Notes under the pieces: generated by a model
What the model saw: only the letters and a program-made list of their open reading frames with translations
Database searches by the model: none
Told to the model about the DNA's origin: nothing
Program-made: the position numbers and the translations under genes
Shown here: positions 3,031 to 25,971 of the stretch, one piece after another
Layout of the letters: each line of letters opens with the position of its first letter
Position numbering within the stretch: the stretch's first letter is position 1
Source: Rhodospirillales bacterium
GTDB lineage: Bacteria > Pseudomonadota > Alphaproteobacteria > Bin95
Length of the DNA stretch: 33,572 nt
Reading direction: 5' to 3'
Assembly (NCBI GenBank): GCA_038143065.1
Contig: JAYQLI010000017.1
Coordinates: 1 to 33,572 of the forward strand

Positions 3031-3188
3031 TAGGTTCTCCCGCAACATTTCAATCTTCATTTTTTTGCATGCGGTGAGCTTGTTCCCAAATACATGAAAT
3101 GTCAGATTTGGATAATTCGCTTATGGTTTGCCGGGGCCGCTTAGAAATAATGATTGGAATACCCGGCTGGACGACAGGAGATTTTCCT

Positions 3189-4890
3189 ATGACACGCGAG
3201 GAATTGTTGCGCATCCTCACCTTTGTCGAAGCAAATCGAGACATATCCGAAAAGCGGACCAGCCTCGCCAGAGTGGATCCTCGCTGGAACATAGTGGCTT
3301 ATGCCATGCGGCGGCATCTAGAGGGTAAGCTACTTACTATTACGTCGGCAGCTATGGCGGCAGATGTGCCCTATGGTACCGCAATGCGGCGTATCACTGA
3401 GCTCATTGATGAAGGGCTGTTACACAAACGAATTAAATCACGCTCTGGAAAGTCTTTTTCTCTGCATCCAACTCGAAAGCTGATCCTTGAGTTTGAGAGC
3501 TTTGCAATGCAACTCAAGGCTATGGTGGGAAATACTTTTGGTTTTAATACTGGCGATGGCGAAATCGGTGACTTCTATTTTGGGGGTTATTATATGGCAT
3601 CACGTACATTGCCTTATCCAAGTGCCATGCGACAGGGCGTTGGTTTGGACAAACCTTTTCGGATCCTGAGCTCCAATGATCCGACCTTCAAAACGCTGAG
3701 TGAATTTTCATCCAGTCTAAACGAACTGTGGCGCTAATATCAAAATTGTCAATCTCCCCTTAGATGAATTGCATGACGAAATCATATCGAATGCAACACG
3801 CAAATCTTCCCTTTATGATATGGTTGCTTTTGATTTGCCGTGGATTGGTCAGTTGGTAAATGAATCTTTGATCGAACCTTTGGACGATTTTATACGGGAA
3901 GATCGCTATAATCCGTCCGACTTTCACAACGCAGCTTATAAGGGATCATCTTGGAACGGTAAACAGTATGGCTTGCCGATACAACCAACGGCAGAATTGT
4001 TGTTCTGCCGCGCCGATCTGTTTGCAGAAGCTGGGCTATCCTTTCCAAAAACTACGGATGAGTTGTTATTGGCGGCACGAGTACTGCATCGCTCTGCCTT
4101 AAACATGTCTGGAATTGTCATGAATTTCGGCCGAGGCACGCCGATGGCGCACACTTTCATACAAACTCTAGCGGATTTCGGCCAACCAATTATCAATCTC
4201 AATCCTTTGGGTGATGGCTTCGACGTGACTGAAATCAATAAAGAAAATTATCGCCCTATGCTTGACACCGATGCGGCACGAGCCGCCGCGGAGTTTTTGC
4301 AAGAGATCGCTGAATTTTCTCACAAAGACAGCCTTATTTGCAACTGGGACCGACGGATCAAAATTTTTTCAAAAGGTGAAGCTGCGATGACCTATGGCTG
4401 GAGCATCCGGGCTGCTGCTTTCGAGTTGAACTCGAGCTCGCCTGCTTACGGAAACGTTCAATTTTTGGCGCATCCACATGGTCCGGGCACGCACACAGTT
4501 ACTCCTATCGGAGGGTTTTCTTTAGCAATCCCGTCGGGTTTGAGCGCTGCACGCAAGAAAATATCTTGGAAAGTTATGGAATATATGACGAGGCCCGAAA
4601 TGCTCAAGTGGTATGTCTTAAATGGTAACCTCACTAGCCCTCGCTTTTCCACAAGTATAGACCCCGAAGTGCAAGCCAGTTCTTTGCTTATAAGTGAGGT
4701 CGATAGCATGGAACGACGTGGTGAATTGCAAACCTGGCCCCGCCCGCCGATCCCTGATTTCAGCGACCTGCTTACCATCCTTGGCGACGAAATGCATATG
4801 ATGTTGCAAGGTGCAGTTTCAGCTGAGGATGCACTTGGAAGATCGCAGAACCGGATCGATAAATTGATGCGTGAGCGGGGCCGCTATTGA
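3189..4890 (+). CDS. Winged-helix + family-1 solute-binding domain fusion protein, putative regulator (frameshift ~3730)
   Basis: ORFs 3099..3737 and 3769..4890 together are colinear with intact paralog 16503..18311 (SGKSFSLHPT, YFG, DPTF, DLPW, WPRPP); AGGAG RBS before 3189. Confidence 0.8.
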
Positions 4891-6845: not shown

Positions 6846-6848
6846 ATC

Positions 6849-7785: not shown

Positions 7786-7795
7786 TTGAATATGA

Positions 7796-9837: not shown

Positions 9838-10700
9838 GTGTGTTCCTTTTTCAGATAGCTGATTACAGAGGCCATATCGCGGTTGACATAGCCTTTTTGG
9901 CTGGCCTGGTTCAAAATATCTAAGTTCAATTCTGCTTGCGGCATTTGAACATCCAAGCTCTGCGCCAAGCGTGTGGCAAGATCGACATCCTTGGCTGCTA
10001 AGCCAACGGTGAACGTAACTTGATGCGCTCGCTCATCCAAATAAAGTGGTTTGCGATAGCGTAACATAGGCGCGCAAGCAGCCGAAGCTTCCAAAGCTTC
10101 ATAGGCCAAGGGAAGCTCAATGCCTGCGGCTTGGGCGAGGTTAAGCGACTCTGCGGCTGCCTGATTCAAACTGTGTATCACCGAATTGATCGCAAGCTTC
10201 ATTGTCGCACCTGCAGATTGCTTGCCAAGAATGATCGTTTTTTCGCCCAAAGCGTCAAAAATTGGTAGCAAAGGCTGTGCTATTTCCTCTGACCCACCCA
10301 CCATAATCATCAATTTGCCCGCTTGAGCGGCTTGGGTGGCGCCGGAAACCGGCGCGTCTATGATAGCAGCACGGCTTGATTGGCTTTGTAATCGGTTGAT
10401 CCAATTCGGGCTGACAGTGCTCATCTCTATGAACACCATGGCTTTTTTGCCTTTTAATAAGCCCGCCTCACCCAGATAGACGTCCTGAGAGGCGGCATCA
10501 TCGGCAAGCATTGTAATAACGATATCGCAAGCAGAGGCTAAGGCTTCCGGTGTTTGAGCGATCTGGCACTGCATTTCAGTCGCAAAAGATGCGCTGCGCG
10601 CAGGGTTGCGGTTCCAGACTTGAATATCGAAACCAGCATTGATCAGATTTTTGGCCATGGGAACGACCATGCGGCCCAGGCCTGCAATCCCTAATTTCAT
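9834..10700 (-). CDS. NAD(P)-dependent oxidoreductase, 3-hydroxyisobutyrate dehydrogenase family
   Basis: GLGRM..PMA, WNR, EMSTVSP, DAPVSG, catalytic K in MKLAIN, KDVDLA. Confidence 0.88.
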   Translation of the reverse strand: MKLGIAGLGRMVVPMAKNLINAGFDIQVWNRNPARSASFATEMQCQIAQTPEALASACDIVITMLADDAASQDVYLGEAGLLKGKKAMVFIEMSTVSPNWINRLQSQSSRAAIIDAPVSGATQAAQAGKLMIMVGGSEEIAQPLLPIFDALGEKTIILGKQSAGATMKLAINSVIHSLNQAAAESLNLAQAAGIELPLAYEALEASAACAPMLRYRKPLYLDERAHQVTFTVGLAAKDVDLATRLAQSLDVQMPQAELNLDILNQASQKGYVNRDMASVISYLKKEHT

Positions 10701-10736
10701 AGTTTGTTACTTTCAATTATCGGCTCAACTGCATTT

Positions 10737-11543
10737 TTATTGAATGCACCAACCGCCATCGATATGCAGCATTTGACCGGTCATATAATCGCTGTCATGG
10801 CTGGCTAAAAATGCCGCTGTGCCTTTCACATCATCGGGGTAGGAGACGCGTTTGATTACAAGCTCATTATTGGTGATATCTTCGTAAGCTTGCCCTGCCC
10901 GCTCTTTGAAACCAATTTCAACTAAATCTTTGTCAAGCTGTTCCCAAAGAGGCGTAACGACCACGCCGGGAGCATACCCGTTCACGGTAATATTATGTTC
11001 CGCCAACGAGACGGGACCGCAATGCGTTAACGCCAAACATCCATATTTTGAAGTGCAATAGACGGTCACATCCACCAATGGCTTGCGGGAGGCAATGCTA
11101 CCAACATTGATCAATTTATATACGTGTTCTTGCGGACCCTGTTTAATCATTTGGCGCGCTGTTTCTTGCATGCCAAGCCACATTGCCTTGGTGTTGACCG
11201 ACATGATCATGTCCCAATTGTCTTCATCAATATCCATAAAAAACCGTGGCTTATTGAGACCTGCGTTGAACAGGCCGATATTGATCATGCCAAAAGCATC
11301 CACAGTGGCGGCCACGGCGGCCACATTGTCTTCGCGTTTGGTAACATCCATTTGAACCGCAATCGCTTTTCCATTGCCGCGCGCATTGATGGTTTCTGCC
11401 ATTTTATTGGCTAAATCAATGTCTAAATCTCCGAGGCAAACATTTGCGCCCTGTTGCGCAAAATGTTCCGCGTTGGTCGCGCCCATGCCGCGTGCTGCGC
11501 CGGTAATTAATATGTTTTTTCCTGCTAATCTTTGCGGATCCAT
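10737..11543 (-). CDS. SDR oxidoreductase (polyol/acetoin dehydrogenase-like)
   Basis: TGAARGMG, NAG, YCTSK, PGVVVTPLW, YMTGQ..IDGG; GGAGG RBS before ATG at 11543. Confidence 0.9.
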   Translation of the reverse strand: MDPQRLAGKNILITGAARGMGATNAEHFAQQGANVCLGDLDIDLANKMAETINARGNGKAIAVQMDVTKREDNVAAVAATVDAFGMINIGLFNAGLNKPRFFMDIDEDNWDMIMSVNTKAMWLGMQETARQMIKQGPQEHVYKLINVGSIASRKPLVDVTVYCTSKYGCLALTHCGPVSLAEHNITVNGYAPGVVVTPLWEQLDKDLVEIGFKERAGQAYEDITNNELVIKRVSYPDDVKGTAAFLASHDSDYMTGQMLHIDGGWCIQ

Positions 11544-11640
11544 GGTAAAAGCCTCCCATTGCACTTTTGATATTTTATAATCGGTTCCAATTACCGATCC
11601 ATCATTGTCAAAAGATTTCCCGGTGCAAAATTCGAATGCA

Positions 11641-11671
11641 TCCAAAATGAATTTAATTAATCCAAACTGGA
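11641..11671. promoter_or_regulatory. Two candidate operator boxes in divergent promoter region
   Basis: TCCAAAATGAA (11641..11651) and TCCAAACTGGA (11661..11671). Confidence 0.5.
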
Positions 11672-11754
11672 CTAATTTATGGTTCTGAATTTTGACTTTT
11701 GGTTGTTGGCTTGAGAGAGCTGCGAAAGTAGCAAAACATTTAGGGAGGACGAAC

Positions 11755-12777
11755 ATGTCTTATTTGAATAAGGTGGCCGGGGTTGCAGTTGCGGCAGGCG
11801 TCGCACTGGGCGGCATGGCCACATCAGTGCTGGCTGCATCCATTGTTTCTTTTAACGGACCCGCAGGGGAGGCTTATGTTGGCCGTTTCATTAAAGGAAT
11901 TAAAGAAACCGCAGCCTTAAAAGGCTTCGATATTAAAGTTTATGAAAACCAATACAACCAAGCCGAACAGGATCAACAAGTGCAACAGGTTTTGGCGACG
12001 GGCCAATTGCCTGATGTGTTCATCTGGTGGCCTTCTGATGCAGTCGCAGGTTTGGGTTCGCTGCGCGCCTTGGCCAAAACTGGCGTACCTGTTTTGAAAA
12101 TAAACCAGCTGCCAAACGAGCAGGACAAGCAATATATTTTTGGATATGCAGGTCCAGATGATCGTTTGCGCGCGCAATGCCGGTTATATGATGCGTGAAG
12201 CAGCGGCAGCGAAAAAAGCAGCGGGTGGGACAGGCTTCAATGTTCTTGCCTTGTCATACCCCCATTCTTATGGCGGTTATGGACTGTCTATCAATGCCTT
12301 CAAAGAAGCCATCGCTGGCTCAGATTTGAAAATCATTGGCGATGTGGATGAAGGCTTTGGTCAAGCAAATGGCTATAAAGGCGCGGCGAAAATGATCGCG
12401 GCTTTGCAAGGGCAAAGTATTGATTTCGTTTATGGAATGGATGATGCGATCTTGACAGGCGGTATCAAGGCTTTGGAAGAAGCTGGCATGGTCATGGGCG
12501 AAGATGTGATTGCTGTTGGAACGGTCTGTAATGGTGACAAACAGCTGATTGAAGAAGGGAAGCAGTTTGGAACAACGCTGCAATCTCCGCTTCATGAAGG
12601 ACAATTGGCTATCAAAATGGTAGAAGAATACCTGAACACAGGTAAACTGGCCAATTACATTAATTTCACGCCAAACCCTCAGTGACTAAAGATACGATCG
12701 AAACCACGGCGCTACGTGGTTATGATGGTAAACTCTATACAATCGAAGAGCTATGCTCGGGCGCTTGGGCAGACTAA
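11755..12777 (+). CDS. Sugar ABC transporter periplasmic binding protein (frameshifted)
   Basis: Signal peptide MSYLNKVAG...VLAA, GVPVLKIN, YGMDD, TTLQSP; ORFs 11692..12198 and 12140..12685 plus tail to TAA 12777; GGGAGG RBS. Confidence 0.8.
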
Positions 12778-12791
12778 CGGCCCCAAAACAG

Positions 12792-12822
12792 TATCTCTGC
12801 CGGCAAAAATCCGGCAGAGATA
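12792..12822 (+). terminator. Intercistronic stem-loop after binding-protein gene
   Basis: tatctctgccgg-caaaaat-ccggcagagata, 12-bp perfect stem. Confidence 0.65.
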
Positions 12823-12845
12823 TCCATTTTGAACGGAATAAATAA

Positions 12846-14365
12846 ATGACCGAATTGTTGAAATTATCCGGTGTTTCACGCTCATTTGGCGCAATTCACG
12901 CCTTAAAGGCCGTTGATTTCGAAATCGAAGCCGGCGAAATAATGGGTTTGGTTGGAGAAAACGGGGCTGGCAAATCAACTTTGGTAAAAATTATCAGTGG
13001 ATTTGACGATGGATATACTGGTGATTTCGTCCTGAACGGGAAAAGCCAACGATTTTCAAGCCCTCTTAAAGCTGAGCGGGCGGGTGTCGCCATCGCACAA
13101 CAAGAGCTGAGCTTGATACCGGCAATGAGCGTGGCTGAAAACGTTTTTATTTCTGGTGAGCACGCTCCGGTTTTTGCCACAAAAAGCAGTTTGGCGCGCA
13201 AAGCAAGCCCGTTTCTAAAAGAGGTTGGGCTTGAAGACGTAGATCCTTATATTCCTGTCGAACGCTTGTCTGTTGTATAACAACAATTGGTTGAAGTGGC
13301 GCTACTGCTTGCGAAACAGCCGCATATTTTAATCATAGATGAACCAACGGCGGCGTTGGGAGAAAGCGACTCTATTCGCATTCTTGCAATGGTTCAGCGG
13401 TTGGCCCAACGCGGTAAGTCGATTATTTACGTCAGCCACCGCATGGATGAAATCTTCAAAATTTGTGATCGGATTACCGTCTTGCGCGACGGTCAAAGCC
13501 AAGAAGCCCGGACTGCAAAAGAGCTTGATGTGTCCTCCTTGGTGGAATTGATGTTGGGCCGAGAGCTTGCAAACATGTTTCCTGCCCACCCCGAAATTCT
13601 GCGCACAAAACCTCTGTTAGAGGTTTGCGATGTTTGGCCCGATGGGACTTTAGAGCCGTTTAACTTTGCCGTATATCCTGGCGAAATCTTGGGCTTGGCA
13701 GGGCAGCTTGGATCTGGGTCAGGCGATGTTTTAGCCGCGATCTCAGGCGCGCGACAATCGCGCAGCGGGCACATTATTTATAACGGCGAAAGTTTTCTGC
13801 CCAAATCGCCAAAAGAGGCAATCGCCCGTGGTATCGCATATTGCTCGGATGATCGAAAACTAGATGGTTTATTTCTTGGACGTCCGATAATAGAAAACCT
13901 GACCTCGCCCGCTTTGGGGGCGATTTCAAATCGCGGCATAATTGACTTGATAGCCGAACGCGATCTTGCTCTATCAAATGGTACAAAATTTACAGTAGAT
14001 GTGACCCGGCTTGATAATGAAGCAGGCGTTCTATCGGGGGAAATCAACAAAAAGTCGCATTGGGAAAATGGCTGGCAATCGAGCCTAAAATTATCTTGGT
14101 GAATGAGCCGACACGCGGCGTGGATGTTGGTGCGCGCGCCGAGATTTATGCAAAGCTGCGCGATTTAGCAAATGATGGTGCCGCGGTTGTTTTCGCGTCT
14201 ACGGATATTCAAGAGGTTACCGGTCTGGCAGATCGAGTGATTAGTTTTTATCGTGGGATGCAGGTGGGTGAATTGGCGTTAAGCGACATCACACCCACCA
14301 ATGTTTTGCAACAAATAACCCATCCTTTTGGGGATGAAGACAAACAGATAAAGGTGGTGTCCTAA
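12846..14365 (+). CDS. Sugar ABC transporter ATPase, two-domain RbsA-like (in-frame TAA at 13278..13280, frameshift ~14040)
   Basis: GENGAGKST, IIDEPT, YVSHRM, DRKLDGL, NEPTRGVDVGAR. Confidence 0.88.
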
Positions 14366-15373
14366 TGCGCAGCACTTCTCGTGGTATGACCGCAAAGCTT
14401 GAGGGTTTGGTTCAGAATTATTCTGGGTTGGTGGTCTCTCTGGTGGCGCTTTTTTTGGTCATTTTCGTTGTTGGAATGGCAACAGCGCCAAACTTTTTGA
14501 CTGTTTTTAACCTTAAAACAATCGTGAGAGATGCCGCTTTGGTGGGCATCATGGCGATTGGGTTGACCTTTGTAACCCTATCGGGGAATTTCTTCCTGTT
14601 GTCGTTAAAAGAAACCGCTGCGCTTAGCATCATTGCTTTTGCAACTTCGATGTCGGCAGGCTACGGCTTTGAGATTTCCTTTTTGTTTACAATGGTCATT
14701 GCGATCCTGACAGGCAGCGCGCAGGGCGTGCTAATCGGTCTTGGCGGAAATCCGATTGTTGTAACGCTTGGAGCCGCTGGATTGCTATATGGTCTTGGCG
14801 CCTATTGGAGCGACAATCTGGTAGTGTCTTTTCGCCGACCGCACGGGGCAGAATGGCTTGGTACAGGATCTTTCTTGGGCCTTCCCAATATAACCATTGC
14901 CTTTATTCTCATAGCGCTTGTAGCCGAGTTAACCTTACGGTTCACAAATTTTGGTCGGCAGGTGTATTTGATTGGTGCTAACCGCGCGGCGGGTCGTGCA
15001 ACGGGGCATGAAAATTTTGCTATGGCTATTAAAACTTGTACGATTGCATCAGTCTGCGCGGCTTTTGTGGCTATCGCATTTTCGGCGCAAGTCTCAAGCG
15101 CTCAAGTGAATTACTTTTCATCTGAATTTGGGTCGAGCGGGGATATGACGATTATGGTGATCGCGACGGTCATGGTGGGGGGAATTCCATTATGGGGGGT
15201 ATGGATCAACAATTCGTTCGAGTTTGGGGGCAGTTTTCATCTCTTCTGTGGATAATATGATGGTGCTGCACGGGTTTAATTCCGGTCCAAGGGTGTTGGC
15301 GGTTGGATTGATGATTGTTTTTTCAATTATGGTGTTTGCGCTTGTGCGTCGTGGCAGCCGGTCGCAAGAATAG
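14365..15373 (+). CDS. Sugar ABC transporter permease (frameshift ~15195)
   Basis: Hydrophobic, NPIVVTLG, TNFGRQVYLIGAN, IATVMVGG. Confidence 0.82.
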
Positions 15374-15382
15374 GATAGGCTT

Positions 15383-16419
15383 ATGAAAAATATTAAACAT
15401 TGGATCGTTAAAAATCCTGATTTGGCGTTTGCGGTCTTATTGGCGATTTGTGTCTATTCTTATTTCGCGTTGACGAATGAATTCTTCGCCACGCACCGAA
15501 CCGGCTATGCTATTATGGAACGGTTCGCGGTATTGGGCCTTGTGGGGCTGGCGCTGACATTGTGCATTATCGCTGGTGAAATTGATTTGTCGATTGGGTC
15601 TAACGCGGCCTTGGCTGCGGTTATTGTAGTGCGTTTTACAGATAGTTTAGGGGCGGTTACCGCCCTGTTGATTGCTATTCTTATCTCTACGCTTGTGGGC
15701 GCGATACAGGGCTATTTTATTGCATATTTGCGGGTAAGGGCGATCGTTCTGACGGTTGGAACCTTAATGTTATTGCGCGGGTGGCGTTATTTGCGGCGCA
15801 AGAGAAGACAGTGATGTTGACTGATTTTCGCGTGCCCGACTTTATCTCCACCAAAATGTTCGTTTATTTTTCACCTGCCAGTTTTTTGGTGATTGTGATG
15901 TTTATTGTTGTTGGTTTGTTTATGACCTTTACCCGGTATGGCCGCGAGATTTATGCGATTGGCGGGGCGCGCAAAGAGGCTATCGCTGCGGGGATTTATT
16001 TGAAACGCCCAATGATCATTGTATTTGCTATTTCCGGGTTATGCGCTGGCTTGGGAGGGTGCATTATTGGTTTGCGCTCGGGCACGGCTCAGGCCTTGGG
16101 TTTGCAATATCTTTTGCTGGCCGGCACAGTTGCTGCTTTTATTGGCGGTGTATCGATTCTTGGCGGCAAAGGCGGCGTTGTCGGGGCTGCGATTGGAACG
16201 TTAACGGTCAATTTCTTAAATACAGGATTGGTTTTCAACGTCACGCCGGCTTTTATGATCCAGCTTTATTTAGGCATTTTATTGATGGTAGTGATTATGT
16301 TCCAAACTGGTAGTCGGTTGTTTGAAGGATATGAGAGGCGCAAGCAATTGCTCTCTGACGTTGATATTCGCCGATTGGATTTACTCGTGCGCAAAAACGC
16401 ATTTAAGCCCCCGCCATAA
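15383..16419 (+). CDS. Sugar ABC transporter permease (frameshift ~15780)
   Basis: GEIDLSIG, TRYGREIYAIGG, AAFIGGVS. Confidence 0.85.
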
Positions 16420-16423
16420 ATAT

Positions 16424-16447
16424 CCAAATTGGATTAATCCAATTTGG
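16424..16447. promoter_or_regulatory. Perfect 24-bp palindrome, candidate double operator
   Basis: CCAAATTGGATT|AATCCAATTTGG directly upstream of the wHTH-SBP gene. Confidence 0.65.
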
Positions 16448-16502
16448 TAATTATACATGGTATCCTACAGACTGGCTGTAAATGGAAATCTGAGGGTGCG
16501 CC

Positions 16503-18311
16503 ATGCCATCATCCAAATCGAATATTCGCCGCATAACATATCCGCGAAGTCGGCATCGCGACGCGCCGGAAGGGCCGTATGAAACAACAGATATCCGACC
16601 AAAATCTGGCGTTGCAAACGCAGAATTGGAAAGCTTTCTTGATTTTGTCGAGCAATTTGACATGGAAATGGAACGCTCATTGTCTATCAAGAAAGGCTAT
16701 AGCGAAACACGCATTCTCGGAACGCTTCTACGGGATCATCTCTCGGGTAAAACATCTACGACCTCGTCTTTAATCGGCGCCTCTGGAATGAGTTATGGCA
16801 CGGCCATTCGCGCGGTTGAGGCAATTGAGAACCGGGGGCTTTTGCTGCGCCGACCGCGCACATCCAGCGGTAAATCATTTTCGTTGCATCCGACTGAAAA
16901 ACTGTTGAGTGAATGGCAAGAATTTGCCAGACGGGCGCGGGCGGCTTTGCAAAGTACCTGGGGACTTACGGGTTCAAAAGATGCGTCCGATTATTATTTT
17001 GGAGCCTCTTATTCCACTGGAAAAGTTTTACCCCCGCCTTCGATAATGAGCGTCAAGCTTCCGCTCAGCGGAAACCTTAGATTATTGGAACATGCCGATC
17101 CGACGTTCATGGCGATGCAGGCCTTGAAGCGTCAATTTGAAAAAATCTTCGGTTTGTCTATCAAAAGCCGCGCCTTGTCGATTGACCGCTTGCGCGAGGA
17201 AATACTAGAAAATGCCAGCCTTGCCAAATCAAGATATGATATTGTTGCCTGCGATTTGCCTTGGTTCGGTGAAATGGCACAAGCGGGCTATTTTCTTCCG
17301 TTGGATTCATTTATTAAAGCCGAGCGATTTGACACCCATGACTTTCACCTCAAAGCTTTGGCCAGCGCCCGCTATAAGGGGGTGCAATATGGTTTGCCAG
17401 TTCAAACAACGCCTGAACTCTTGGTCTATCGCAGCGATGTGTTTGCCGAGTTTGGTTTAACCCCGCCTCTAACAATTGCCGATACGCTTTCTGCGGCCAA
17501 AACAATCCATTCGCCATTCAAGGGGATGACGGGAATGGCTTGGAATGCCGGACGCGGCACACCTTTGGGCCATTCATTTTTATTCGTCATGGCCGCCTTT
17601 GGACAACCTGTTTTAAATTTATCGCCTTCTGCAGATGGGTTTGACGGAGAGCATGTGGAAGGAGAGAATTTCCGTCCCATGTTTGATTCCGACGCGGCGT
17701 GGGAGGCGGCGGAGTATTTCAAAGAACTCATCGATTATTCGCCGCGTGGCATTTTAAACATGTCTTGGTTTGACCGCGCGGTTTCATATGCTGAAGGCAA
17801 TTGCGCCATGGCGCATTGCGCGACTTTGCTCGCACCATTATTTGAACTGGATAAAACATCCCCCGCGTTTGAAAAAACAGAATATCTACCGCTTCCGGCA
17901 GGTCCAAAGGGACGGTCTATTGCGCCAATCGGAGGATACGCGCTGGCCATTCCTGCGAATGTTGACCCAGCGCGGTTTGATCCAATTTGGACGGCTTTGA
18001 CGTCGCTAACATCAGCACAAACCGTCAAACTTTATATAGAGAATGGAAGTTTGGTAAGCCCGCGGTTTAGTGTCAGTCAGGACCCTGAAGTTCAAAAGAT
18101 CTCACCGCTGATTTCGATTGTGGATGAGATGGCGCGAACTGGGGTTTTGCAAATGTGGCCACGCCCGCCAGTGCCTGAAATTACGCGCTTAATTGCGATG
18201 ATAGGAGAAGAAATGCATGATGCTTTGCTGGGAGACAAAACGCTTGCGACGGCGCTACAAAATTCACAAAACCGTGCCGATCGCCTCATGCGCGAAAACG
18301 GGCATTACTGA
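16503..18311 (+). CDS. Winged-helix + family-1 solute-binding domain fusion protein, putative regulator
   Basis: N-terminal TTSSLIGASGMSYGTAIRAVEAIENRGLLLRR wHTH-like segment; C-terminal sugar SBP motifs (YDIV..DLPW, LPLD, YGLP, LVYRSDVF, GGYALAIP); no signal peptide. Confidence 0.85.
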   Translation: MPSSKSNIRRITYPRSRHRDAPEGPYETTDIRPKSGVANAELESFLDFVEQFDMEMERSLSIKKGYSETRILGTLLRDHLSGKTSTTSSLIGASGMSYGTAIRAVEAIENRGLLLRRPRTSSGKSFSLHPTEKLLSEWQEFARRARAALQSTWGLTGSKDASDYYFGASYSTGKVLPPPSIMSVKLPLSGNLRLLEHADPTFMAMQALKRQFEKIFGLSIKSRALSIDRLREEILENASLAKSRYDIVACDLPWFGEMAQAGYFLPLDSFIKAERFDTHDFHLKALASARYKGVQYGLPVQTTPELLVYRSDVFAEFGLTPPLTIADTLSAAKTIHSPFKGMTGMAWNAGRGTPLGHSFLFVMAAFGQPVLNLSPSADGFDGEHVEGENFRPMFDSDAAWEAAEYFKELIDYSPRGILNMSWFDRAVSYAEGNCAMAHCATLLAPLFELDKTSPAFEKTEYLPLPAGPKGRSIAPIGGYALAIPANVDPARFDPIWTALTSLTSAQTVKLYIENGSLVSPRFSVSQDPEVQKISPLISIVDEMARTGVLQMWPRPPVPEITRLIAMIGEEMHDALLGDKTLATALQNSQNRADRLMRENGHY

Positions 18312-18353
18312 TCCCATGAAAATCCAAATTCGAGCTGCTCGAGGAGATATAAA

Positions 18354-19658
18354 ATGACCACGCCCAATGCCTTACATCCTAACGTGTTAACGCCAGCTGA
18401 TCTTGAACCAAATTGGCGCTGGGAGGGTCGTTTACCAGCCTGGGGGCACACATCGGTTGATTTTGAGCGGCGCGTTGATCATGATCGGTTGCGTCGCTAC
18501 CGCCTAAGTCGCACGCGCCAAGCTTTGAAAGCCTCGAATGCAGGCACGCTATTACTCTTTGACGTGAACAATATCCGCTATGTTTCGGCGACTAAAATCG
18601 GCGAATGGGAGCGCGATAAAATGTGCCGTTTTTGCCTCTTAACAGGTGATGATAGCCCATATGTGTGGGATTTTGGGTCTGCTGCAGTGCATCACCAAAA
18701 ATATTCTGATTGGTTGGAGCCAGATCATTGTTTGGCCGGTGTGGTCGGTATGCGGGGGACGATTCCGCCCGAGTTTGGGTTGATGAGGAAATACGCTAAG
18801 CAAATCGCTGGATTGATCAAAGATGCAGGTATGGCTGATATGCCTGTTGGGGTCGATTATGCGGAAACGGCTATGTTTCACGCGCTTCAAGAAGAAGGCA
18901 TTAATGTGATTGATGGCCAACAGATCATGCTGGCCGCGCGTGAGATCAAGAATTGGGATGAAATTCAACTTCTCACCCAAGCTGCGAGCATGGTGGATGG
19001 TGTTTATCATATGATCTATGAGGAACTGAAACCCGGTGTTCGTGAAAATGACATCGTCGCCTTGTCAAATAAAATGCTTTATGAAATGGGCTCTGATGAT
19101 GTTGAGGCAATCAATGCCATCTCAGGAGAGCGGTGTAACCCGCATCCTCATAATTTCACAGACCGACTGATCCGTCCTGGCGATCAGGCATTTTTCGATA
19201 TTTTGCAAAGTTATCAGGGATATCGCACTTGTTATTACAGAACCTTCAATGTTGGACGAGCAACGCCGTCTCAAAACGATGCTTATATCAAGGCGCGTGA
19301 ATGGCTCGAGGCGTCGATCCAAATGATCAAGCCGGGCGTGAGTACAGATAAAGTGGCCGAGGTTTGGCCAACGGCGGAAAGCTTGGGATTTCCAAATGAA
19401 GACGCGGCTTTTGGGTTACAATTTGGCCATGGTCTTGGTCTGGCCTTGCATGAGCGCCCTATTATCAGCAGGGCGGTCAGTATTGATCATCCAATGGAAA
19501 TAAAAACAGGCATGGTGTTTGCGCTTGAAACCTATTGTCCTGCCACTGACGGCTATTCAGCCGCACGTATCGAAGAAGAGGTCGTGGTGACGGATACGGG
19601 CTGCGAAGTGATTAGTTTATTTCCCGCCGAAGAGCTGCCGATTGCCAACCGCTATTAA
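18354..19658 (+). CDS. M24 (Xaa-Pro peptidase/creatinase fold) enzyme
   Basis: LLFDVNNIRY, AREIKNWDEI, GHGLGLALHERP, GMVFALET, RIEEEVVVT. Confidence 0.88.
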   Translation: MTTPNALHPNVLTPADLEPNWRWEGRLPAWGHTSVDFERRVDHDRLRRYRLSRTRQALKASNAGTLLLFDVNNIRYVSATKIGEWERDKMCRFCLLTGDDSPYVWDFGSAAVHHQKYSDWLEPDHCLAGVVGMRGTIPPEFGLMRKYAKQIAGLIKDAGMADMPVGVDYAETAMFHALQEEGINVIDGQQIMLAAREIKNWDEIQLLTQAASMVDGVYHMIYEELKPGVRENDIVALSNKMLYEMGSDDVEAINAISGERCNPHPHNFTDRLIRPGDQAFFDILQSYQGYRTCYYRTFNVGRATPSQNDAYIKAREWLEASIQMIKPGVSTDKVAEVWPTAESLGFPNEDAAFGLQFGHGLGLALHERPIISRAVSIDHPMEIKTGMVFALETYCPATDGYSAARIEEEVVVTDTGCEVISLFPAEELPIANRY

Positions 19659-19716
19659 ACAATTTTGGGTGTGGCGTAGTTTGCACAAGCAGTTCAAATC
19701 ATGAGTATGGAATATA

Positions 19717-20724
19717 ATGCCTAAAAAAAACCAAACAAATTCTGCGGAATATATGCGAATGTATATGCAGATGATGCGTATTCGGGCTTTCGAAGATAAC
19801 GCAAATCAATTATATCTATCTGCCAAAATGCCAGGTCTTACGCATATGTATTCAGGGCAAGAAGCGGTAGCTGTTGGGATCTGTGAAGCGTTAACGACCA
19901 GCGATAAGATCACGTCAACCCATCGTGGTCACGGCCATTGCCTGGCCAAAGGCGCGGATCTGAAGCTGATGTTTTGTGAACTTCTGGGCAAAGAAGAGGG
20001 CTATTGCCGTGGCAAAGGCGGATCGATGCATATTGCCGATCAATCAAATGGCAACTTAGGAGCAAATGCTATTGTGGGGGGCTCAATGGGTATCGCGACA
20101 GGGGCTGCCTTGTCGGCTAAGCGCTTAGGAACCTCTGATATTGTGGTTTGCTTTTTCGGCGATGGGGCTACGGCGCAAGGCTTGATGTATGAGGTTATGA
20201 ATATGGCCGCGCTGTGGAAGCTTCCGGTGATTTATGCCTGCGAAAACAATCTCTATGGCGAATACACCAAGGTTGAAGAAACGCTGGCTGGCGATATCAC
20301 TGCGCGCGCAGAGGCTTTCGGAATTGAGGCCTTGCAGGTGGATGGGCAAGACGTATTGGCGGTGAATGAGTGCACGCAGCGCCTGGCTGAACGCTGCCGG
20401 AAAGGCGAGGGCCCATTTTTTATGGAACTGCTGACCTATCGCTATCATGGGCATCATGTTGGCGATATTAACCGAGAATATTACCGTTCAAAGGAAGAAG
20501 AAGCCGAGTGGAAAAACAACCGTGACCCGATCAAAAATTTTGGGGCCTGGTTAACGTCGCAAGGAATTGCTTCTGAAGACGAGTTAAACGCCTTGCAATC
20601 GGAGATTAAAACCGAGGCTTCAGAGGCGGTGGAATATGCTTTGAACGCTGCTTATCCCAGCGAAACAGAGGTGGGTTTGCATGTTTTTGCAGCCACGCCG
20701 CAGATGGGAGAAGAGCATGCGTGA
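19717..20724 (+). CDS. TPP-dependent dehydrogenase E1 alpha subunit (AcoA/PdhA-like)
   Basis: GQEA, STHRGHGH, GKGGSMH, GDGA...ENN, TYRYHGH. Confidence 0.92.
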   Translation: MPKKNQTNSAEYMRMYMQMMRIRAFEDNANQLYLSAKMPGLTHMYSGQEAVAVGICEALTTSDKITSTHRGHGHCLAKGADLKLMFCELLGKEEGYCRGKGGSMHIADQSNGNLGANAIVGGSMGIATGAALSAKRLGTSDIVVCFFGDGATAQGLMYEVMNMAALWKLPVIYACENNLYGEYTKVEETLAGDITARAEAFGIEALQVDGQDVLAVNECTQRLAERCRKGEGPFFMELLTYRYHGHHVGDINREYYRSKEEEAEWKNNRDPIKNFGAWLTSQGIASEDELNALQSEIKTEASEAVEYALNAAYPSETEVGLHVFAATPQMGEEHA

Positions 20725-21712
20725 AATCACTCTTTCTAAGGCTGTTAATGAAGCGATTGCCGAAGAGATGCGGCGCGATGAAACAATTTTTTTGCTTGGG
20801 GAAGACGTTGCTGAAGCGGGCACTCCGTTCAAAATACTTTCTGGTCTTGTCGAAGAATTTGGAACGGATCGCATTGTTGATACTCCGATTGCTGAGCCCG
20901 GGTTTATGGGCATAGCGGTCGGTGCTGCGATGACGGGCAGCAGGCCAATCGTAGATTTGATGTTCGGCGATTTTCTATTTTTAATCATGGACCAATTATG
21001 CAACCAAGCGGCAAAAACCCATTATATGTCGGGGGGCAAGCTCAATGTACCATTGGTGCTACGCACCAATTTGGGCGCCACCCGTCGGTCTGCCGCGCAG
21101 CATAGTCAATCTTTGCATGCTTTGGTGGCGCACATTCCTGGTTTGAAAGTGGCTCTTCCGTCATCAGCCTATGAGGCGAAAGGGCTTTTGAAAACCGCTA
21201 TTCGCGACAATAATCCAGTGGTAATTTTTGAAGATAAGCTCATGTATAATGATAAGGCGCCGGTGCCAGAGGAAGAGTTTCTTATTCCGTTTGGGGTGGC
21301 AAATATAAAGCGAGTGGGCACTGATATCACCCTGATCGCAACCTCATCGATGGTTCAAGTCGCCGAACAAGCCGCTGATATATTGGCAGAACAGGACATC
21401 AGTGCCGAGGTGATTGATCCGCGCACGATCGTACCCCTTGATGAAGAAACCTTGATCGCTTCGGTGAAAAAAACCAGCCGAGCAATCGTGATAGATGAAG
21501 GCCATCAGAGCTATGGAATTACCGGAGAAATTGCCAGCCGACTGACCGAAAAGGCATTCTATCATTTAGATGCTCCAGTCATGCGGATGGGGGCAATGGA
21601 TGTGCCGGTGCCGTTTTCTCCAGTGCTTGAGGATTTGACGGTTCCAACCCCTGCCGGCGTGGCTGAGATGGCAAGAAAACTATTCTCAGGCGAGTTGATC
21701 CATGCCGCATGA
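20717..21712 (+). CDS. TPP-dependent dehydrogenase E1 beta subunit (AcoB/PdhB-like)
   Basis: GEDV, DTPIAE, AAQHSQS, IPGLKV, EVIDPRT. Confidence 0.92.
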   Translation: MREITLSKAVNEAIAEEMRRDETIFLLGEDVAEAGTPFKILSGLVEEFGTDRIVDTPIAEPGFMGIAVGAAMTGSRPIVDLMFGDFLFLIMDQLCNQAAKTHYMSGGKLNVPLVLRTNLGATRRSAAQHSQSLHALVAHIPGLKVALPSSAYEAKGLLKTAIRDNNPVVIFEDKLMYNDKAPVPEEEFLIPFGVANIKRVGTDITLIATSSMVQVAEQAADILAEQDISAEVIDPRTIVPLDEETLIASVKKTSRAIVIDEGHQSYGITGEIASRLTEKAFYHLDAPVMRMGAMDVPVPFSPVLEDLTVPTPAGVAEMARKLFSGELIHAA

Positions 21713-23054
21713 CGTGATCATGCCCGCCTTGGGGATGGCACAAGAAACCGGTGTAATCCTATCTTGGTTGAAAAAACCAGGGGATCAGGTTTCGCTGGGT
21801 GATGCCTTGATGGAAGTGGAAACAGATAAAGCTGTTATGGAAGTTGAGTCATCTGCTGCGGGGGTTTTGAGCGATGTAAAAGCAGCTGCCGGAGAGAGTG
21901 TGCCGGTAGGGCAGGTGGTTGCGGTGATTTTGGATCCTGAAGAGGTGTTAAGCACGCAGATAAGCCCAACAGAGAAGCCCAGTGGGGTTGCCCCGCATGG
22001 TGCTACATCAACAGAGGCAATCCCTGCAAATATAGATGTGACATCGCAGATAGTTATGCCAGCCCTTGGTATGGCACAGGAAACCGGGCGTGTGATCGCC
22101 TGGCATAAACAGGTTGGTGAGGAAACGGATGTTGATGATATTCTGCTTGAAGTAGAAACGGATAAAGCCACTATGGAAGTGCCTGCGGGAAAAGCTGGCT
22201 TTGTAGCCAATTTATTCGTGGGCGCTGGTCAAGAGGTTCCGGTAGGTTCTGTTATTGCGACCCTTTCGAATGTTAAACCTTCGGGTATTGCCGCGCCTCA
22301 GCAGCCGCTTACAAAGCCCATTACAGTTCCAGCCGAGACACCGACCTCGGTTGCAATGTCATCTGTCTTAAAACCCCGCTTTATACAACCGGGAAGCCAA
22401 ACAACGGATGTAGTGGCAGGTTCAGGGAAAATTTTGGCCTCACCAAAAGCGCGGCGTTTGGCCTTAGAAAATGACTTAGATTTGAACCTTTTGGCAAAGG
22501 CTGGATATGCTCAGCCGTATCACGTTGCTGATCTTGAGCGCTTTGATGACTTGCCTCAACTAAAAACAGAAAAATCTGTCTTAGGAAATAATAAGCGCAT
22601 TAATGCGGCTATTCCCGTCATTGGTGTAGAAAGCTTTCTCGCAAAGTTAAGAGAGCAGGCAGATATTGAAATATCTGACTATTTGGTCTGGGCCAGTTTT
22701 GCGTCTGCTGCTTGGCGGAATCAAAATCAAACACATGCAGCGGTGATCGTTGAAGTCGCAGAGCTTTTAACGCCAATTGGAATTTATGAAAACTTAGACA
22801 CGCAGCGCCTTTCGCGTGCGGTGCAATGCAATACCCAAAATCCGCCCAATTTTATAATTCGAACCCTGAGTAAAAGTTTAATTACTGCTCTGCACTTGGA
22901 TCACAGCTGTCCCAGCATCACCGTCCAAAAAACAGCCACGGATTATCTGATATCATTTGAATTTTCTGCCAATGCTATGTCTGACTTCGCAGCTGTGGCG
23001 TTTATATCAGATTTTGCGGCGCGTTTAGAAAATCCGTTGAGACAGCTACTTTAA
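21702..23054 (+). CDS. E2-like protein: two lipoyl domains + E1/E3-binding domain + degenerate acyltransferase-like domain
   Basis: Two MPALG...VETDKA lipoyl domains, ASPKARRLA; C-terminus ends AFISDFAARLENP but lacks DHRxxDG. Confidence 0.8.
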   Translation: MPHDVIMPALGMAQETGVILSWLKKPGDQVSLGDALMEVETDKAVMEVESSAAGVLSDVKAAAGESVPVGQVVAVILDPEEVLSTQISPTEKPSGVAPHGATSTEAIPANIDVTSQIVMPALGMAQETGRVIAWHKQVGEETDVDDILLEVETDKATMEVPAGKAGFVANLFVGAGQEVPVGSVIATLSNVKPSGIAAPQQPLTKPITVPAETPTSVAMSSVLKPRFIQPGSQTTDVVAGSGKILASPKARRLALENDLDLNLLAKAGYAQPYHVADLERFDDLPQLKTEKSVLGNNKRINAAIPVIGVESFLAKLREQADIEISDYLVWASFASAAWRNQNQTHAAVIVEVAELLTPIGIYENLDTQRLSRAVQCNTQNPPNFIIRTLSKSLITALHLDHSCPSITVQKTATDYLISFEFSANAMSDFAAVAFISDFAARLENPLRQLL

Positions 23055-23073
23055 GGGAATGGAGACTATCGTC

Positions 23074-24500
23074 ATGCAAACTAACCTTTATATTGATGGG
23101 AATTGGGTGCCAAGCCAGTCCGCCCAGCGCTTTGATGTGGTGAACCCTGCAACAGAGGATGTGATTGCATCGGTTGCCTCTGCGGATATTTTTGATGCCG
23201 ATTTGGCATTAAATGCGGCTTCCATCGCCATGCAAGAATGGGCTGCACGATCGCCTCGGGATCGTTCGGAAGTTTTGCGCAAAGCTTGGGAATTAATGAC
23301 GGCGCGATTGCCAGAATTTGCACGTTTAATCACGCTAGAAAATGGCAAAGCAAATGCCGATGCGATGGGAGAAGCCACCTATGCTGCCGAGTTTTTTCGC
23401 TGGTTTGCCGAAGAGGCGGTGCGCGTAGACGGTCTGATTGCGCATGCGCCCGCTTCAGGGGCACGGATCATTGTTCAGCATAAGCCAGCCGGGATTGCGG
23501 TTTTGGTGACCCCTTGGAATTACCCTGCGGCTATGGGAACGCGTAAAATTGCACCTGCTTTGGCGGCCGGTTGTGCGGTCATTATAAAGCCAGCATCGGA
23601 AACGCCTTTAACAATGCTGGCGCTTATGCCGCTTCTAGAAGAAGCTGGGGTGCCCAAAGGGGTGGTCAACGTTCTTCCATCCCGCAACACCGGCGTGCTG
23701 GTTGATCATATGTTACATGATCCGCGCGTGCGGGTAGTCAGTTTTACAGGGTCGACTGAAGTGGGGCGTAAGTTGCTTCATTCTGCGGCTGACCAAGTCT
23801 TGAAACCGGCTATGGAATTGGGGGGGAATGCTCCTGCGATTGTTTTTGAGGATGCTAATCTTGATGTGGCGGTGGAAGGCGTGATGCTGGCAAAAATGCG
23901 CAATTTGGGCGAGGCCTGTACCGCGGCAAATCGAATTTATGTGCATTCAAGTATTGCGCCAGCCTTTACCGAAAAGTTCACATCTGCCATGGCGGAGTTG
24001 AAAATCGGCAATGGTTTAGAGGCAGGCATAGATGTAGGCCCTCTGGTCAATGCAGATACCCGCAATAAGGTGGATGCATTCGTGCAGGACGCGGTTGCAA
24101 AAGGCGCCAAAGTGGAACTTGGGGGCGTGTTACCTTCGGGAAAAGGGTTTTTTACCCGCCCACAGTATTGTCAGGCGTTCCAGAAACTGCAGATTGTGTG
24201 GGGGATGAAATTTTTGGACCTGTTGCAGCGCTTCAAACTTTCAACGATCAAGAAGATGTAATTCGCCGCGCCAATGATACCGAATATGGACTGGTGGCCT
24301 ATGTATTCTCGGAAGATATGAAGCGCGCTTTGCAAGTTTGTGAACGGCTGGATTATGGAATGGTCGGCTTGAACCGCGGGTTGGTCTCTGACCCAGCGGC
24401 GCCTTTTGGCGGCACAAAACAATCTGGCCTCGGCCGCGAGGGAGGGCATGAGGGCATGCATGAGTTTATGGAAACCCAGTATATCTCAGCCAGTTGGTAG
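23074..24500 (+). CDS. NAD(P)-dependent aldehyde dehydrogenase, SSADH/GabD-like (frameshift ~24150)
   Basis: TPWNYP, KPASETP, FTGST, MELGGNAP, GEAC, EIFGPV, PFGGTKQSGLGREG. Confidence 0.9.
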
Positions 24501-24509
24501 GATAATTTA

Positions 24510-25415
24510 ATGGAGGTTCAGGCATCACCAAGCGTGCGGGCTTATGCGGCTGAAAAAAATGTGACTTTGGGTGACGTAGCAACCTCGCTTAAACGGAGCG
24601 TGCTGGGTAAAGAGGATATTGACCGCTTTTGCGCAACTCCAAACACAAATTTAGGCACCAGTGTTGCGCCAGCCGTGGAAAATTCAGCAAAATATTGGGC
24701 GATTGACCACGCTCAATTCGGACCCATTAGCCTAGAACCCTTGACCCGCATTGAGCAGGTCGCAGAAGCGAATCTTTCAGCTGCAAATGCGATGATTCCT
24801 CAAGTGACGCACCATGATTATGTCGAGATCAGTGCCATTGAAGCATTTCGCGAAAGAGTGAAATCTGAAGCTCAACAGCGCGGTGTTAAATTAACCGCAC
24901 TGGCCTTTCATCTTAGGGCGCTCGCCGAATGTTTGCTCAAATTCCCGCGCTTCAATGCATCTATCTCCGCGGATAAAAAACATCTTATATTGAAGCAATA
25001 TGTGCATATCGCACTTGCGGTTGATACACCCCATGGATTGGTTGTTCCTGTTCTGAGACATGTGAATGAAAAAGGGTTATGGGACATCTCGAATGAAGTC
25101 TCAGATTTAGTGGAGAAAGCACAGTCGCGCAAATTGCGACCTGAGGAATTGGCAGGCGGCTCGGTCACAATCTCCAATCTTGGGCGGCTAGGCGGGACGG
25201 CTTTCACTCCTATTGTAAACCCGCCTCAAGTGGCAATTCTTGGGCTATCGCGTAGCGAATTTAGACCGTATTGGGATGGTTCTACTTGGCAGGCTATTCC
25301 GACAATTCCGTTGGATTTAAGCTATGATCATCGCATAATAAATGGAGCTGATGCTGCAAGGTTTATGAATGCGTATCGTAAATTTATAAGTATGCCAGAA
25401 CTTATGTTTTCATAA
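24510..25415 (+). CDS. 2-oxoacid dehydrogenase acyltransferase catalytic protein lacking lipoyl domains
   Basis: ASPSVRAYA, FPRFNAS, AVDTPHGLVVPV, TISNLG, FTPIVNPPQVAILG, DLSYDHRIINGADAARF. Confidence 0.88.
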   Translation: MEVQASPSVRAYAAEKNVTLGDVATSLKRSVLGKEDIDRFCATPNTNLGTSVAPAVENSAKYWAIDHAQFGPISLEPLTRIEQVAEANLSAANAMIPQVTHHDYVEISAIEAFRERVKSEAQQRGVKLTALAFHLRALAECLLKFPRFNASISADKKHLILKQYVHIALAVDTPHGLVVPVLRHVNEKGLWDISNEVSDLVEKAQSRKLRPEELAGGSVTISNLGRLGGTAFTPIVNPPQVAILGLSRSEFRPYWDGSTWQAIPTIPLDLSYDHRIINGADAARFMNAYRKFISMPELMFS

Positions 25416-25764
25416 CAGCTATAAGCTAAACCTCCTCAAGATATTCCTGCCCGCCTTCCTTTTCTGTCACGAGTTTGAAATCTTCTTTTGGGCAGTCTGC
25501 CTTTTTTAAAATCAGTTGCTAAAAAATCGCTGTAGTAACGCGCTAGGCGCTCGGTAAAGTGGAAACTTTCATCGATATCATCCGAGGCCAAATTTATCGC
25601 ATCTGTTTCATTCATTGTGTAGCCATATCTATTCGTACTTTAAAAAGTCGTGGATATTGACTTTAGTGTAAAGGAATTTTTTGATACTTCGTATCACAAA
25701 TTTCTGTACGTGCTTAATCTTGAGAGACAGCGCCCACTTATGATTTTTGATTTTTTGATCTAAG

Positions 25765-25971
25765 TGCGCATGATGCGCATGACTTTTTCCAATAAACTTA
25801 TTTTCTTTCGCAATATTGCGCACGGATCACCATACCAAGCATTAGGCTTCAAATAAATATGAAAAATCATATACTTAAATATAACTTAAAAGTGGCCAAG
25901 AAAACTGATGCGCACATGCGCAAATTTTCTAATGTCAAAAATCAAAGGTTATATCGTCGTCATGCGCATCA
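25765..25971. repeat. TGCGCA iteron cluster around AT-rich core, candidate replication origin
   Basis: TGCGCA at 25765, 25774, 25817, 25909, 25917, 25963, at the 3' end of the VapE gene. Confidence 0.55.

Follow-up and report, generated by a model that had tools for sequence, protein, structure and literature searches.

Can a protein that bears the name of an extracellular solute-binding protein act as a gene switch in the cytoplasm? The question is raised by an intact gene (P0001; Table 1) in a 33,572-nucleotide stretch of DNA from a Rhodospirillales bacterium (GenBank assembly GCA_038143065.1, contig JAYQLI010000017.1; the whole stretch is called the window below), whose product joins a winged helix-turn-helix (wHTH) to a solute-binding protein (SBP) domain and is referred to here as the wHTH-SBP protein. 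Our analysis indicates that the gene most likely encodes a cytoplasmic MarR-like DNA-binding domain coupled to a complete maltose-binding-protein-type domain, i.e. an unstudied kind of sugar-sensing gene switch. We further predict, with good though not full confidence, that this one-component regulator is a dimeric, ligand-responsive transcription factor of an operon for sugar/polyol uptake and catabolism.

The protein is read from one continuous frame, which opens just three codons before the ATG (605 residues open). The PEGPYE motif at residues 21–26 is conserved among homologs, and for both reasons the annotated ATG is sound. The protein aligns end to end with homologs of 560–630 residues, and no insertion or deletion inside the gene was listed when contigs of four public sequencing runs were compared with the window.

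The C-terminal part is a family-1, MalE-like binding protein. Pfam places SBP_bac_1, the domain that marks family-1 extracellular SBPs, at residues 244–487 (8.7e-20; 72.4 bits vs. a cut-off of 26) and SBP_bac_8 at residues 210–532 (6.5e-16). A phmmer search of the Protein Data Bank (PDB) aligned residues 186–595 with residues 24–421 of a 422-residue sugar SBP, 5iai (4.9e-26; 1.9e-65 when searched with the family profile), and because nearly all of 5iai is covered, the domain is considered complete. Further matches were the trehalose/maltose-binding protein 1eu8 (1.3e-17) and the sorbitol SBP 4rya (2.5e-11); by similarity, the closest solved SBPs (trehalose/maltose, sorbitol and unnamed sugar SBPs) offer a hint of the class of ligand.

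Structure prediction suggests that the N-terminal region is a winged helix of the MarR type. An AlphaFold2 model of residues 31–180, built from an 88-sequence alignment, has a mean predicted local distance difference test score (pLDDT) of 83 with a core above 94, and runs through helix, helix, helix-turn-helix, two-stranded wing and long helix; helix 87–94 reads SSLIGASG, helix 98–110 reads YGTAIRAVEAIEN, and the wing strands are residues 114–118 and 126–130. Compared with the PDB by Foldseek, the model gave 12 matches at an expectation value (E) of 1e-3 or below, all 12 of them MarR-type regulators, among them 7kfs, ST1710 and its relatives, BldR, Rv0880, MepR and BpsR (template modelling (TM) scores 0.39–0.48); VIA-align against 48,161 chains returned Z-scores of 8–9.9 to winged-helix domains (the SAMD1 WH domain, MecI, BlcR and MarR-like proteins); and ESM Atlas features of residues 1–180 pointed towards small MarR/IclR-type clusters at 0.86–0.88, below the 0.9 mark and thus a lead only. 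Twelve residues are invariant in 22 homologs (S94, Y98, G99, R103, R117, T120, G123, S125, S127, L128, H129 and P130) and cluster in helix 3, the recognition helix and the wing; the recognition helix and wing are also conserved in 16 loci of other genomes. Weak wHTH matches (MarR_2, HTH_IclR, MarR, HTH_24, TrmB and HTH_36) appeared in 23 of 35 divergent relatives scanned with Pfam, at the position equivalent to residues ~82–120, and one relative, P0268, passes the gathering score (HTH_24; 23.3 vs. 21.9).

The same domain is predicted to pair with itself. A homodimer model scored 0.44, vs. 0.01 for the best of three controls; its runs share at least 45% of contacts, with a partner pLDDT of at least 69, and the modelled contacts involve helices 1, 2 and 5, the ones through which MarR proteins dimerise. 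Of proteins solved as same-chain pairs, 20 of 30 attain the mark that it passes, vs. 1 of 23 of those solved as single chains; as the model was made with our own alignment, these counts hold only roughly. Since solved MarR dimers pair in this way, the pass may reflect resemblance to those structures.

Export was judged by Kyte–Doolittle hydropathy in windows of 12 and 19 residues, a heuristic by which the wHTH-SBP protein has neither a signal-peptide-like stretch (the top 12-residue mean in the first 70 residues is 0.52, vs. 1.66–2.20 in four exported SBPs of related loci) nor a membrane-helix-like one (19-residue maximum 1.27), nor the signal peptide or lipoprotein leader of a family-1 ATP-binding cassette (ABC) import receptor. 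The first 70 residues of 21 aligned homologs also fall below the exported SBPs, two of them marginally (1.62 and 1.47). Taken together, these results agree with the original prediction, which had been made from the letters alone, on the 602-residue frame with its coordinates, plus strand and ATG; on an N-terminal wHTH, the named elements of which turn out to be helix 3, the recognition helix and the wing of the model; on a DYYFG linker, which lies at residues 163–167 with Y164 and G167 invariant in the 22 homologs; on a full MalE-like SBP domain; and on the lack of a signal peptide, a point on which that reading hung and for which the hydropathy heuristic gives no sign of the contrary.

A further line of evidence comes from the DNA. 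A 13-bp palindrome, ATCCAA-N-TTGGAT, recurs at the wHTH-SBP gene and at the adjoining transporter operon: an inverted-repeat search picked up two neighbouring palindromes just 5' of the gene (16419–16452), and a promoter-region alignment shows that the Planktomarina locus L005 and a second copy of the locus on contig C10 both keep the two boxes of the divergent region (11640–11672). Scanning the window with the pattern ATCCAANTTGGAT and up to two mismatches found eight matches vs. 2.41±1.64 expected, a number reached by none of 100 shuffles; five of the eight lie in three intergenic regions of the wHTH-SBP operon (11640, 11660, 16422, 16437 and 18322). Throughout the 4.63-Mb genome the perfect palindrome occurs only twice, each time ~70–80 nucleotides upstream of one of the gene's two copies, and sites with at most one mismatch number 28 vs. 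6 for the reversed control.

The palindrome also accompanies the gene elsewhere. Eight of nine related loci carry it within 160 nucleotides of the homologous gene (10 matches vs. 0.15±0.37 expected; 0 of 200 shuffles). We then formed an independent set of 15 loci by leaving out L005, which had been used in motif finding, and adding seven further loci of the same class; here 13 matches fall in gene flanks, spread over 11 of the 15 loci, vs. 0.16±0.40 expected from flank-only shuffles (0 of 2000). Since the bearers include a SAR202 metagenome-assembled genome (MAG), Granulosicoccus, a Hyphomicrobiaceae MAG, Bradyrhizobium, Lichenibacterium and Lichenifustis, the palindrome has stayed with the gene over distant lineages, and its conservation beside the gene argues, indirectly, for DNA binding. 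A scan for the sigma-70 consensus gave no more matches than shuffles did, and none at the intergenic regions of interest.

The gene neighbourhood points to sugar transport. In all nine related loci the homologous gene stands beside sugar-type ABC transporter genes, and in most of them oxidoreductase genes are near (short-chain dehydrogenase (SDR), GMC, GFO/IDH/MocA, zinc-dependent alcohol dehydrogenase, ThuA and xylose-isomerase-like). The adjacent transporter is of the CUT2 type in seven of ten loci (the window, L001, L002, L003, L005, L007 and L009) and, consisting of a Peripla_BP_4 protein, a double ATPase and BPD_transp_2 permeases, brings its own type-I receptor; no family-1 permease (BPD_transp_1) on which the SBP domain could dock was found among the scanned open reading frames of these seven loci, the upstream transporter frames of L003 being assigned by their match in size and order to L002 rather than by a scan. 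Family-1-type permease genes do adjoin the homologous gene in L004 and L008. In L001, from a SAR202 bacterium, the genes follow one another as in the window up to the end of the contig (binding protein, ATPase, two permeases, wHTH-SBP gene, M24 enzyme), and in L005 those for E1 alpha, E1 beta, lipoyl protein, aldehyde dehydrogenase and E2 catalytic protein come next, again as in the window. The scanned frames of L001, L002 and L005 showed no further regulator gene; an RpiR-type gene lies near in L004 and a gene for a LuxR-type response regulator in L006.

From the computed architecture and fold, the absence of a hydrophobic leader, the conservation and location of the palindrome and the conserved neighbourhood, we propose the following mechanism: two N-terminal MarR-like winged helices would pair in the cell via helices 1, 2 and 5; the dimer would bind ATCCAA-N-TTGGAT both in front of the wHTH-SBP gene and in the divergent promoter that serves the ABC-transporter/catabolic operon; the C-terminal MalE-like domain (family 1, type-II fold), which carries no export signal, would serve as a cytoplasmic sensor; a sugar/polyol-like compound imported by the CUT2 transporter, or else a pathway intermediate, would close its two lobes; and lobe closure would be relayed by the conserved DYYFG linker to the DNA-binding dimer, so that operator occupancy changes. 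Given a transcription factor, we lean modestly towards a repressor that is released by its ligand rather than an activator.

Activation with the same architecture and operator, in which the dimer, once it has bound sugar, would bring RNA polymerase to its own and the divergent promoter, is in our estimate possible but unlikely. MarR-type proteins are mostly repressors, and the tandem palindromes, 66–81 nucleotides before the start codon, could overlap the promoter. The sites of the divergent region, on the other hand, lie ~90–110 nucleotides before the transporter ATG, a spacing at which an activator could bind ahead of the promoter. The known regulator nearest in architecture, SgrR, governs its own expression and that of sgrS/sgrT (bioRxiv 10.64898/2026.04.01.715812), which also speaks for activation. 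That the protein is instead, as its public annotation has it, a normal exported SBP that serves an ABC importer and has an odd N-terminal extension, we hold to be very improbable indeed: the names shown among the best 120 homologs are all of this kind, the SBP domain is complete, and family-1-type permease genes adjoin the gene in L004 and L008, but the leader is missing here and hydropathy falls short in the homologs too, the two marginal ones included, a folded winged-helix domain of 120 residues precedes the SBP domain, and the neighbouring CUT2 transporter has its own receptor in seven of ten loci, the window among them.

Several observations weigh against the proposed regulator. In the wHTH-SBP protein itself, Pfam finds no family, helix-turn-helix models included, in the first 206 residues even at E≤10; the sole NCBIfam match is SpxR at chance level (E 0.084); and a profile made from an N-terminal-only alignment, which replaced one that still held SBP parts and was swamped by SBP matches, finds in the PDB at best a SlyA-like MarR protein (E 0.015, weak). 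The TM-scores of the N-terminal domain are modest over the whole Foldseek list (0.39–0.51), Z-scores of 8–10 are in the range that VIA-align calls common, and a full-length AlphaFold2 model from 22 close homologs is poor (mean pLDDT 53.7) and was not used for the domain arrangement. As to the palindrome, it was not found in the searched flanks of 4 of the 15 independent loci (L004, L017, L019 and L020), and the recognition segments are alike in loci with and without it, so that covariation lends no support; besides a match at 2880, two of the window's matches lie inside the wHTH-SBP gene (16511 and 17980), of which that at 17980 sits on the codons of a conserved peptide, PIWT, at about the same offset in L005, and is for these reasons read as coding constraint; and the sites at 16422–16449 can also form a 10-bp hairpin, listed on the minus strand by a terminator scan. 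The hairpin and the lack of a helix-turn-helix match in Pfam would suit a cytoplasmic ligand-binding protein that uses its winged helix to contact other proteins (the ABC ATPase or an enzyme of catabolism, for instance), in which case the palindromes would be unrelated elements such as RNA hairpins or repeats at operon junctions; winged helices do occur in non-DNA-binding roles, and the VIA-align matches include ribosomal and cohesin ones. We nevertheless judge such a role improbable: each 13-mer is itself palindromic and stands beside the gene in 11 of the 15 loci of distant taxa while the surrounding intergenic sequence is not conserved, the invariant residues gather in the recognition helix and wing, and the two nearest outside relatives examined are response regulators whose output domain is the wHTH.

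How does the predicted regulator compare with those already known? Input and output domains share one chain (SBP_bac_1/SBP_bac_8 and a MarR-like winged helix), as in one-component regulators, and Pfam detected no REC or kinase domain in the protein. The architecture comes closest to that of SgrR, which activates sgrS. The SgrR family (E. coli SgrR and V. cholerae DsvR) has an N-terminal helix-turn-helix and a C-terminal SBP_bac_5 domain (bioRxiv 10.64898/2026.04.01.715812). Like the predicted regulator, these are cytoplasmic one-component proteins in which an ABC-type solute-binding domain of ~400 residues follows an N-terminal helix-turn-helix, with a link to sugar metabolism. The sensor, however, is of family 1 here (SBP_bac_1/SBP_bac_8, MalE-like) and of family 5 in SgrR; SgrR controls a small RNA, whereas the predicted targets here are an ABC transporter and a catabolic operon; SgrR_N has no match in residues 1–206 at E≤10 nor in the 35 relatives at E≤0.05; and SBP_bac_5 matches neither the protein nor those relatives.

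LysR regulators consist of an N-terminal winged helix, a helical linker/dimerisation element and a sensor of the type-II binding-protein fold, and often act at divergent promoters. Together with the LacI regulators they come closest in principle to the wHTH-SBP protein, with which LysR regulators share the winged helix, the linker element, the two-lobed type-II fold and the divergent promoters, but their effector domain has ~200 residues and its own Pfam family and goes with HTH_1, whereas the sensor here is a complete transporter-type SBP of ~410 residues, clearly similar in sequence to transport SBPs (5iai, 4.9e-26); HTH_1 and LysR_substrate are absent from the Pfam scan at E≤0.01. LacI/GalR proteins join a type-I fold (Peripla_BP_1/3) to a small LacI-type helix-turn-helix; like the predicted regulator, they use a binding-protein fold as a cytoplasmic sugar sensor on a DNA-binding domain, beside sugar transport/catabolic genes, and the same scan shows neither the LacI-type helix-turn-helix nor Peripla_BP_1/3 at E≤0.01. 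MarR proteins are single-domain proteins of ~150 residues that bind their ligand within the dimer. The wHTH-SBP protein resembles them in its N-terminal fold, helix order and wing, in the predicted use of its first and last helices for dimerisation and in its palindromic candidate target, and the wHTH fold with flanking dimerisation helices is seen in AlphaFold2, Foldseek and the homodimer model; it differs in its 602 residues and separate 410-residue sensor, and neither MarR nor MarR_2 passes the Pfam gathering score in it, the matches in its relatives being sub-threshold. It is thus MarR-like in fold and not a member of the MarR family by sequence threshold or size. The TrmB family of sugar-specific wHTH regulators does not fit either, as its helix-turn-helix is sub-threshold in 2 of 35 relatives and no TrmB C-terminal domain was detected. 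With the family-1 transport SBPs (5iai, 1eu8 and 4rya) the C-terminal 410 residues align over the whole mature protein, but the wHTH-SBP protein lacks a leader/lipobox, has a winged helix in front and mostly lacks family-1 permease neighbours, the window showing no BPD_transp_1 gene beside it.

Among Creative Commons-licensed PubMed Central papers and bioRxiv we found no published account of a regulator composed of a wHTH and a family-1 SBP, which is not proof of absence; together with the lack of SgrR_N, LysR and LacI matches in Pfam, this accords with the remark, made at the outset, that the combination was not recognised as a characterised regulator. The idea of a transport receptor turned sensor of a transcription factor, also part of the original prediction, stands as regards the MarR-type winged helix, the lack of any sign of export and of a match to a characterised family; its novelty in principle was overstated because LysR, which already joins a winged helix to a type-II binding-protein fold, had been omitted.

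Searched with phmmer against 1.84 billion representatives (50% identity), residues 1–180 of the wHTH-SBP protein matched only 161 proteins at E≤1e-3, of which many short ones are probably gene fragments, and 34 of the 35 divergent relatives scanned carry SBP_bac_1 or SBP_bac_8; the N-terminal domain thus seems, from these matches, nearly restricted to the architecture of wHTH plus family-1 SBP. One protein, P0187 (505 residues), has the winged helix at residues 212–344 and no SBP domain was detected in it; it may be another architecture or a mis-called gene. A word-index search scored 8000 proteins and found 1612 at E≤1e-3. The best 120 of these 1612 are mostly of 561–632 residues with 60–73% identity, one reaching 99%, and the names shown among them are without exception extracellular solute-binding or ABC substrate-binding protein, just as had been guessed of automatic annotation. 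In 17 of 301 sampled genomes of the same class the N-terminal profile matches at E≤1e-8; eight of these, including the window's own genome (G000), have strong matches, in frames of 567–759 residues. Two weaker matches (5.2e-13 and 8e-13) are response regulators made of REC and a C-terminal MarR-like wHTH (L023 and L024; Table 1). Among the weaker matches examined these are the nearest outside relatives of the N-terminal domain, and as they carry REC, a relative of the winged helix serves there as a signalling output domain.

On balance we incline to see here a family of transcription factors that would be widespread and has gone unrecognised. An entire MalE-like transporter domain would have been brought into the cytoplasm and fused to a MarR-like winged helix such as some response regulators carry as their output; the family would keep ATCCA-N3-TGGAT across the several phyla of the loci and switch sugar/polyol operons in abundant marine bacteria, and may be both a living intermediate of the route to LysR- and LacI-type regulators and a scaffold for biosensors. 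LysR- and LacI-type regulators are thought to derive from binding proteins. LacI, LysR and SgrR already use binding-protein folds, and a family-1 SBP sensor would be the third transporter-type class known as a cytoplasmic sensor. If the proteins do bind DNA, well over a hundred clusters named 'extracellular solute-binding protein' would be mis-annotated regulators, and the sugar/polyol regulons of marine bacteria could be predicted from the conserved operator alone. Since few ligand-binding scaffolds are understood as well as MalE-like domains, one that nature has wired to a DNA-binding output would be attractive for biosensor design.

The window holds a second member of the family, which is at odds with the earlier statement that no other regulator is visible: it is split over two reading frames, an N-terminal domain at 3099–3737 (37% identity) and an SBP domain at 3769–4890 (45% identity), and lies directly upstream of another CUT2 transporter gene (5009–6004). 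Elsewhere in the genome, contig C10 (~14100–30000; locus L014) repeats window positions 9134–25020 over 15.9 kb at 96.4% identity with different frame breaks, and its copy of the wHTH-SBP gene is intact and 97% identical. Either the operon was truly duplicated or the bin, with a contamination of 5.5%, contains a second strain.

Frameshifts split the genes of the CUT2 binding protein, the ATPase and both permeases (11755–16419) and of the aldehyde dehydrogenase (23059–24500). Contigs from four public runs (three DNA studies and one metatranscriptome), compared over 11500–18400 and so not at the aldehyde dehydrogenase break, have extra G/C letters at 12167, 12675, 14035, 15176, 15193 and 15778. 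A decaying operon with transporter pseudogenes was rejected on account of these letters, which appear at each break point in the four runs; the frame breaks are most likely assembly errors (single-base deletions), and the operon is probably intact in nature. The stretch was also met with in metagenomes of seawater, estuary, marine and salt-marsh origin, sequenced in 10 studies. An RNA-library contig (run X15) spans the permease–regulator junction (15689–16546), which is no proof of transcription or of a single transcript, and we draw nothing from it.

Table 1. Features of the window and of two comparison loci (positions are those of the window unless a locus is named; residues are those of the wHTH-SBP protein)
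Feature	Position	Strand	Remarks
wHTH-SBP protein gene (P0001), intact	16503..18311	+	602 residues, ATG start
MarR-like winged-helix domain (predicted), residues 37–153	16611..16961	+	AlphaFold2, Foldseek, VIA-align
Secondary structure of the winged-helix domain (modelled)			helix 1 39–60, helix 2 67–80, helix 3 87–94, recognition helix 98–110, wing strands 114–118 and 126–130, helix 5 132–153
Recognition helix and wing, residues 98–130	16794..16892	+	invariant residues in 22 close homologs
Linker with conserved DYYFG.SY motif (residues 163–170)	16962..17057	+	modelled at low confidence
Complete family-1 (MalE-like) solute-binding domain, residues 186–595	17058..18287	+	Pfam SBP_bac_1 and SBP_bac_8, PDB matches
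Two adjacent candidate operators, ATCCAAATTGGAT (perfect, 16422) and ATCCAATTTGGTA (16437)	16422..16449		81 and 66 nucleotides before the start codon
Two candidate operators, ATCCAAAATGAAT and ATCCAAACTGGAC (11640, 11660)	11640..11672		in the 211 nucleotides that separate the divergent start codons of the SDR gene (11543, minus strand) and the binding-protein gene (11755)
Weaker candidate site, ATCCAAATTCGAG, two mismatches	18322..18334		between wHTH-SBP and M24 genes; may be chance
CUT2-type ABC transporter: Peripla_BP_4 binding protein, double ATPase, two BPD_transp_2 permeases	11755..16419	+	upstream of the wHTH-SBP gene; split into fragments
Divergent short-chain dehydrogenase (SDR) gene	10737..11543	-	shares its promoter region with two candidate sites
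M24 DddP-like enzyme, E1 alpha, E1 beta, lipoyl-domain protein, aldehyde dehydrogenase (split), E2 catalytic-domain protein	18354..25415	+	downstream block; order as in L005
Second family member, in two reading frames	3099..4890	+	N-terminal domain and SBP domain
Response regulator, REC and C-terminal MarR-like winged helix	L023 1411-2490	-	HTH_27, 29.8 bits vs. cut-off 22.2
Response regulator, REC and C-terminal MarR-like winged helix	L024 811-1875	+	N-terminal profile match

The downstream genes encode a pathway made up of a DddP-like M24 enzyme, an aldehyde dehydrogenase and a set of E1 and E2 proteins that resembles acetoin dehydrogenase and has a split E2; no publication that assigns this M24/E1/E2 operon was found in the literature named above, which again is not proof of absence. 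The best model for the M24 enzyme (18354–19658), which has the same position in L001 and L005, is that of the dimethylsulfoniopropionate lyase DddP, matched over its whole length at 116.9 bits vs. a cut-off of 600. The E2 component is natively split, both in the window (21702–25415) and in L005 (12166–15762), into a protein with two lipoyl domains and an acyltransferase catalytic protein, with the aldehyde dehydrogenase gene between them. The binding protein of the transporter (12170–12679) shares 97.6% protein identity over residues 141–310 with that of Planktomarina (L005, 2240–3259), vs. 63–84% for neighbouring genes, a likeness that may stem from recent exchange or from strong constraint.

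Further genes of the window are split as well: choline-dehydrogenase-like, ABC ATPase, permease, levoglucosan-dehydrogenase-like, ThuA and VapE-like genes (1481–3060, 6079–8918, 9128–9837 and 25935–27470). These splits outside 11500–18400 may be the same assembly artefact. Downstream of the operon, the region 25935–30560 holds VapE-like genes (two fragments) and a fragment of an integrase Arm DNA-binding domain, which look like the remains or the edge of an integrated mobile element.

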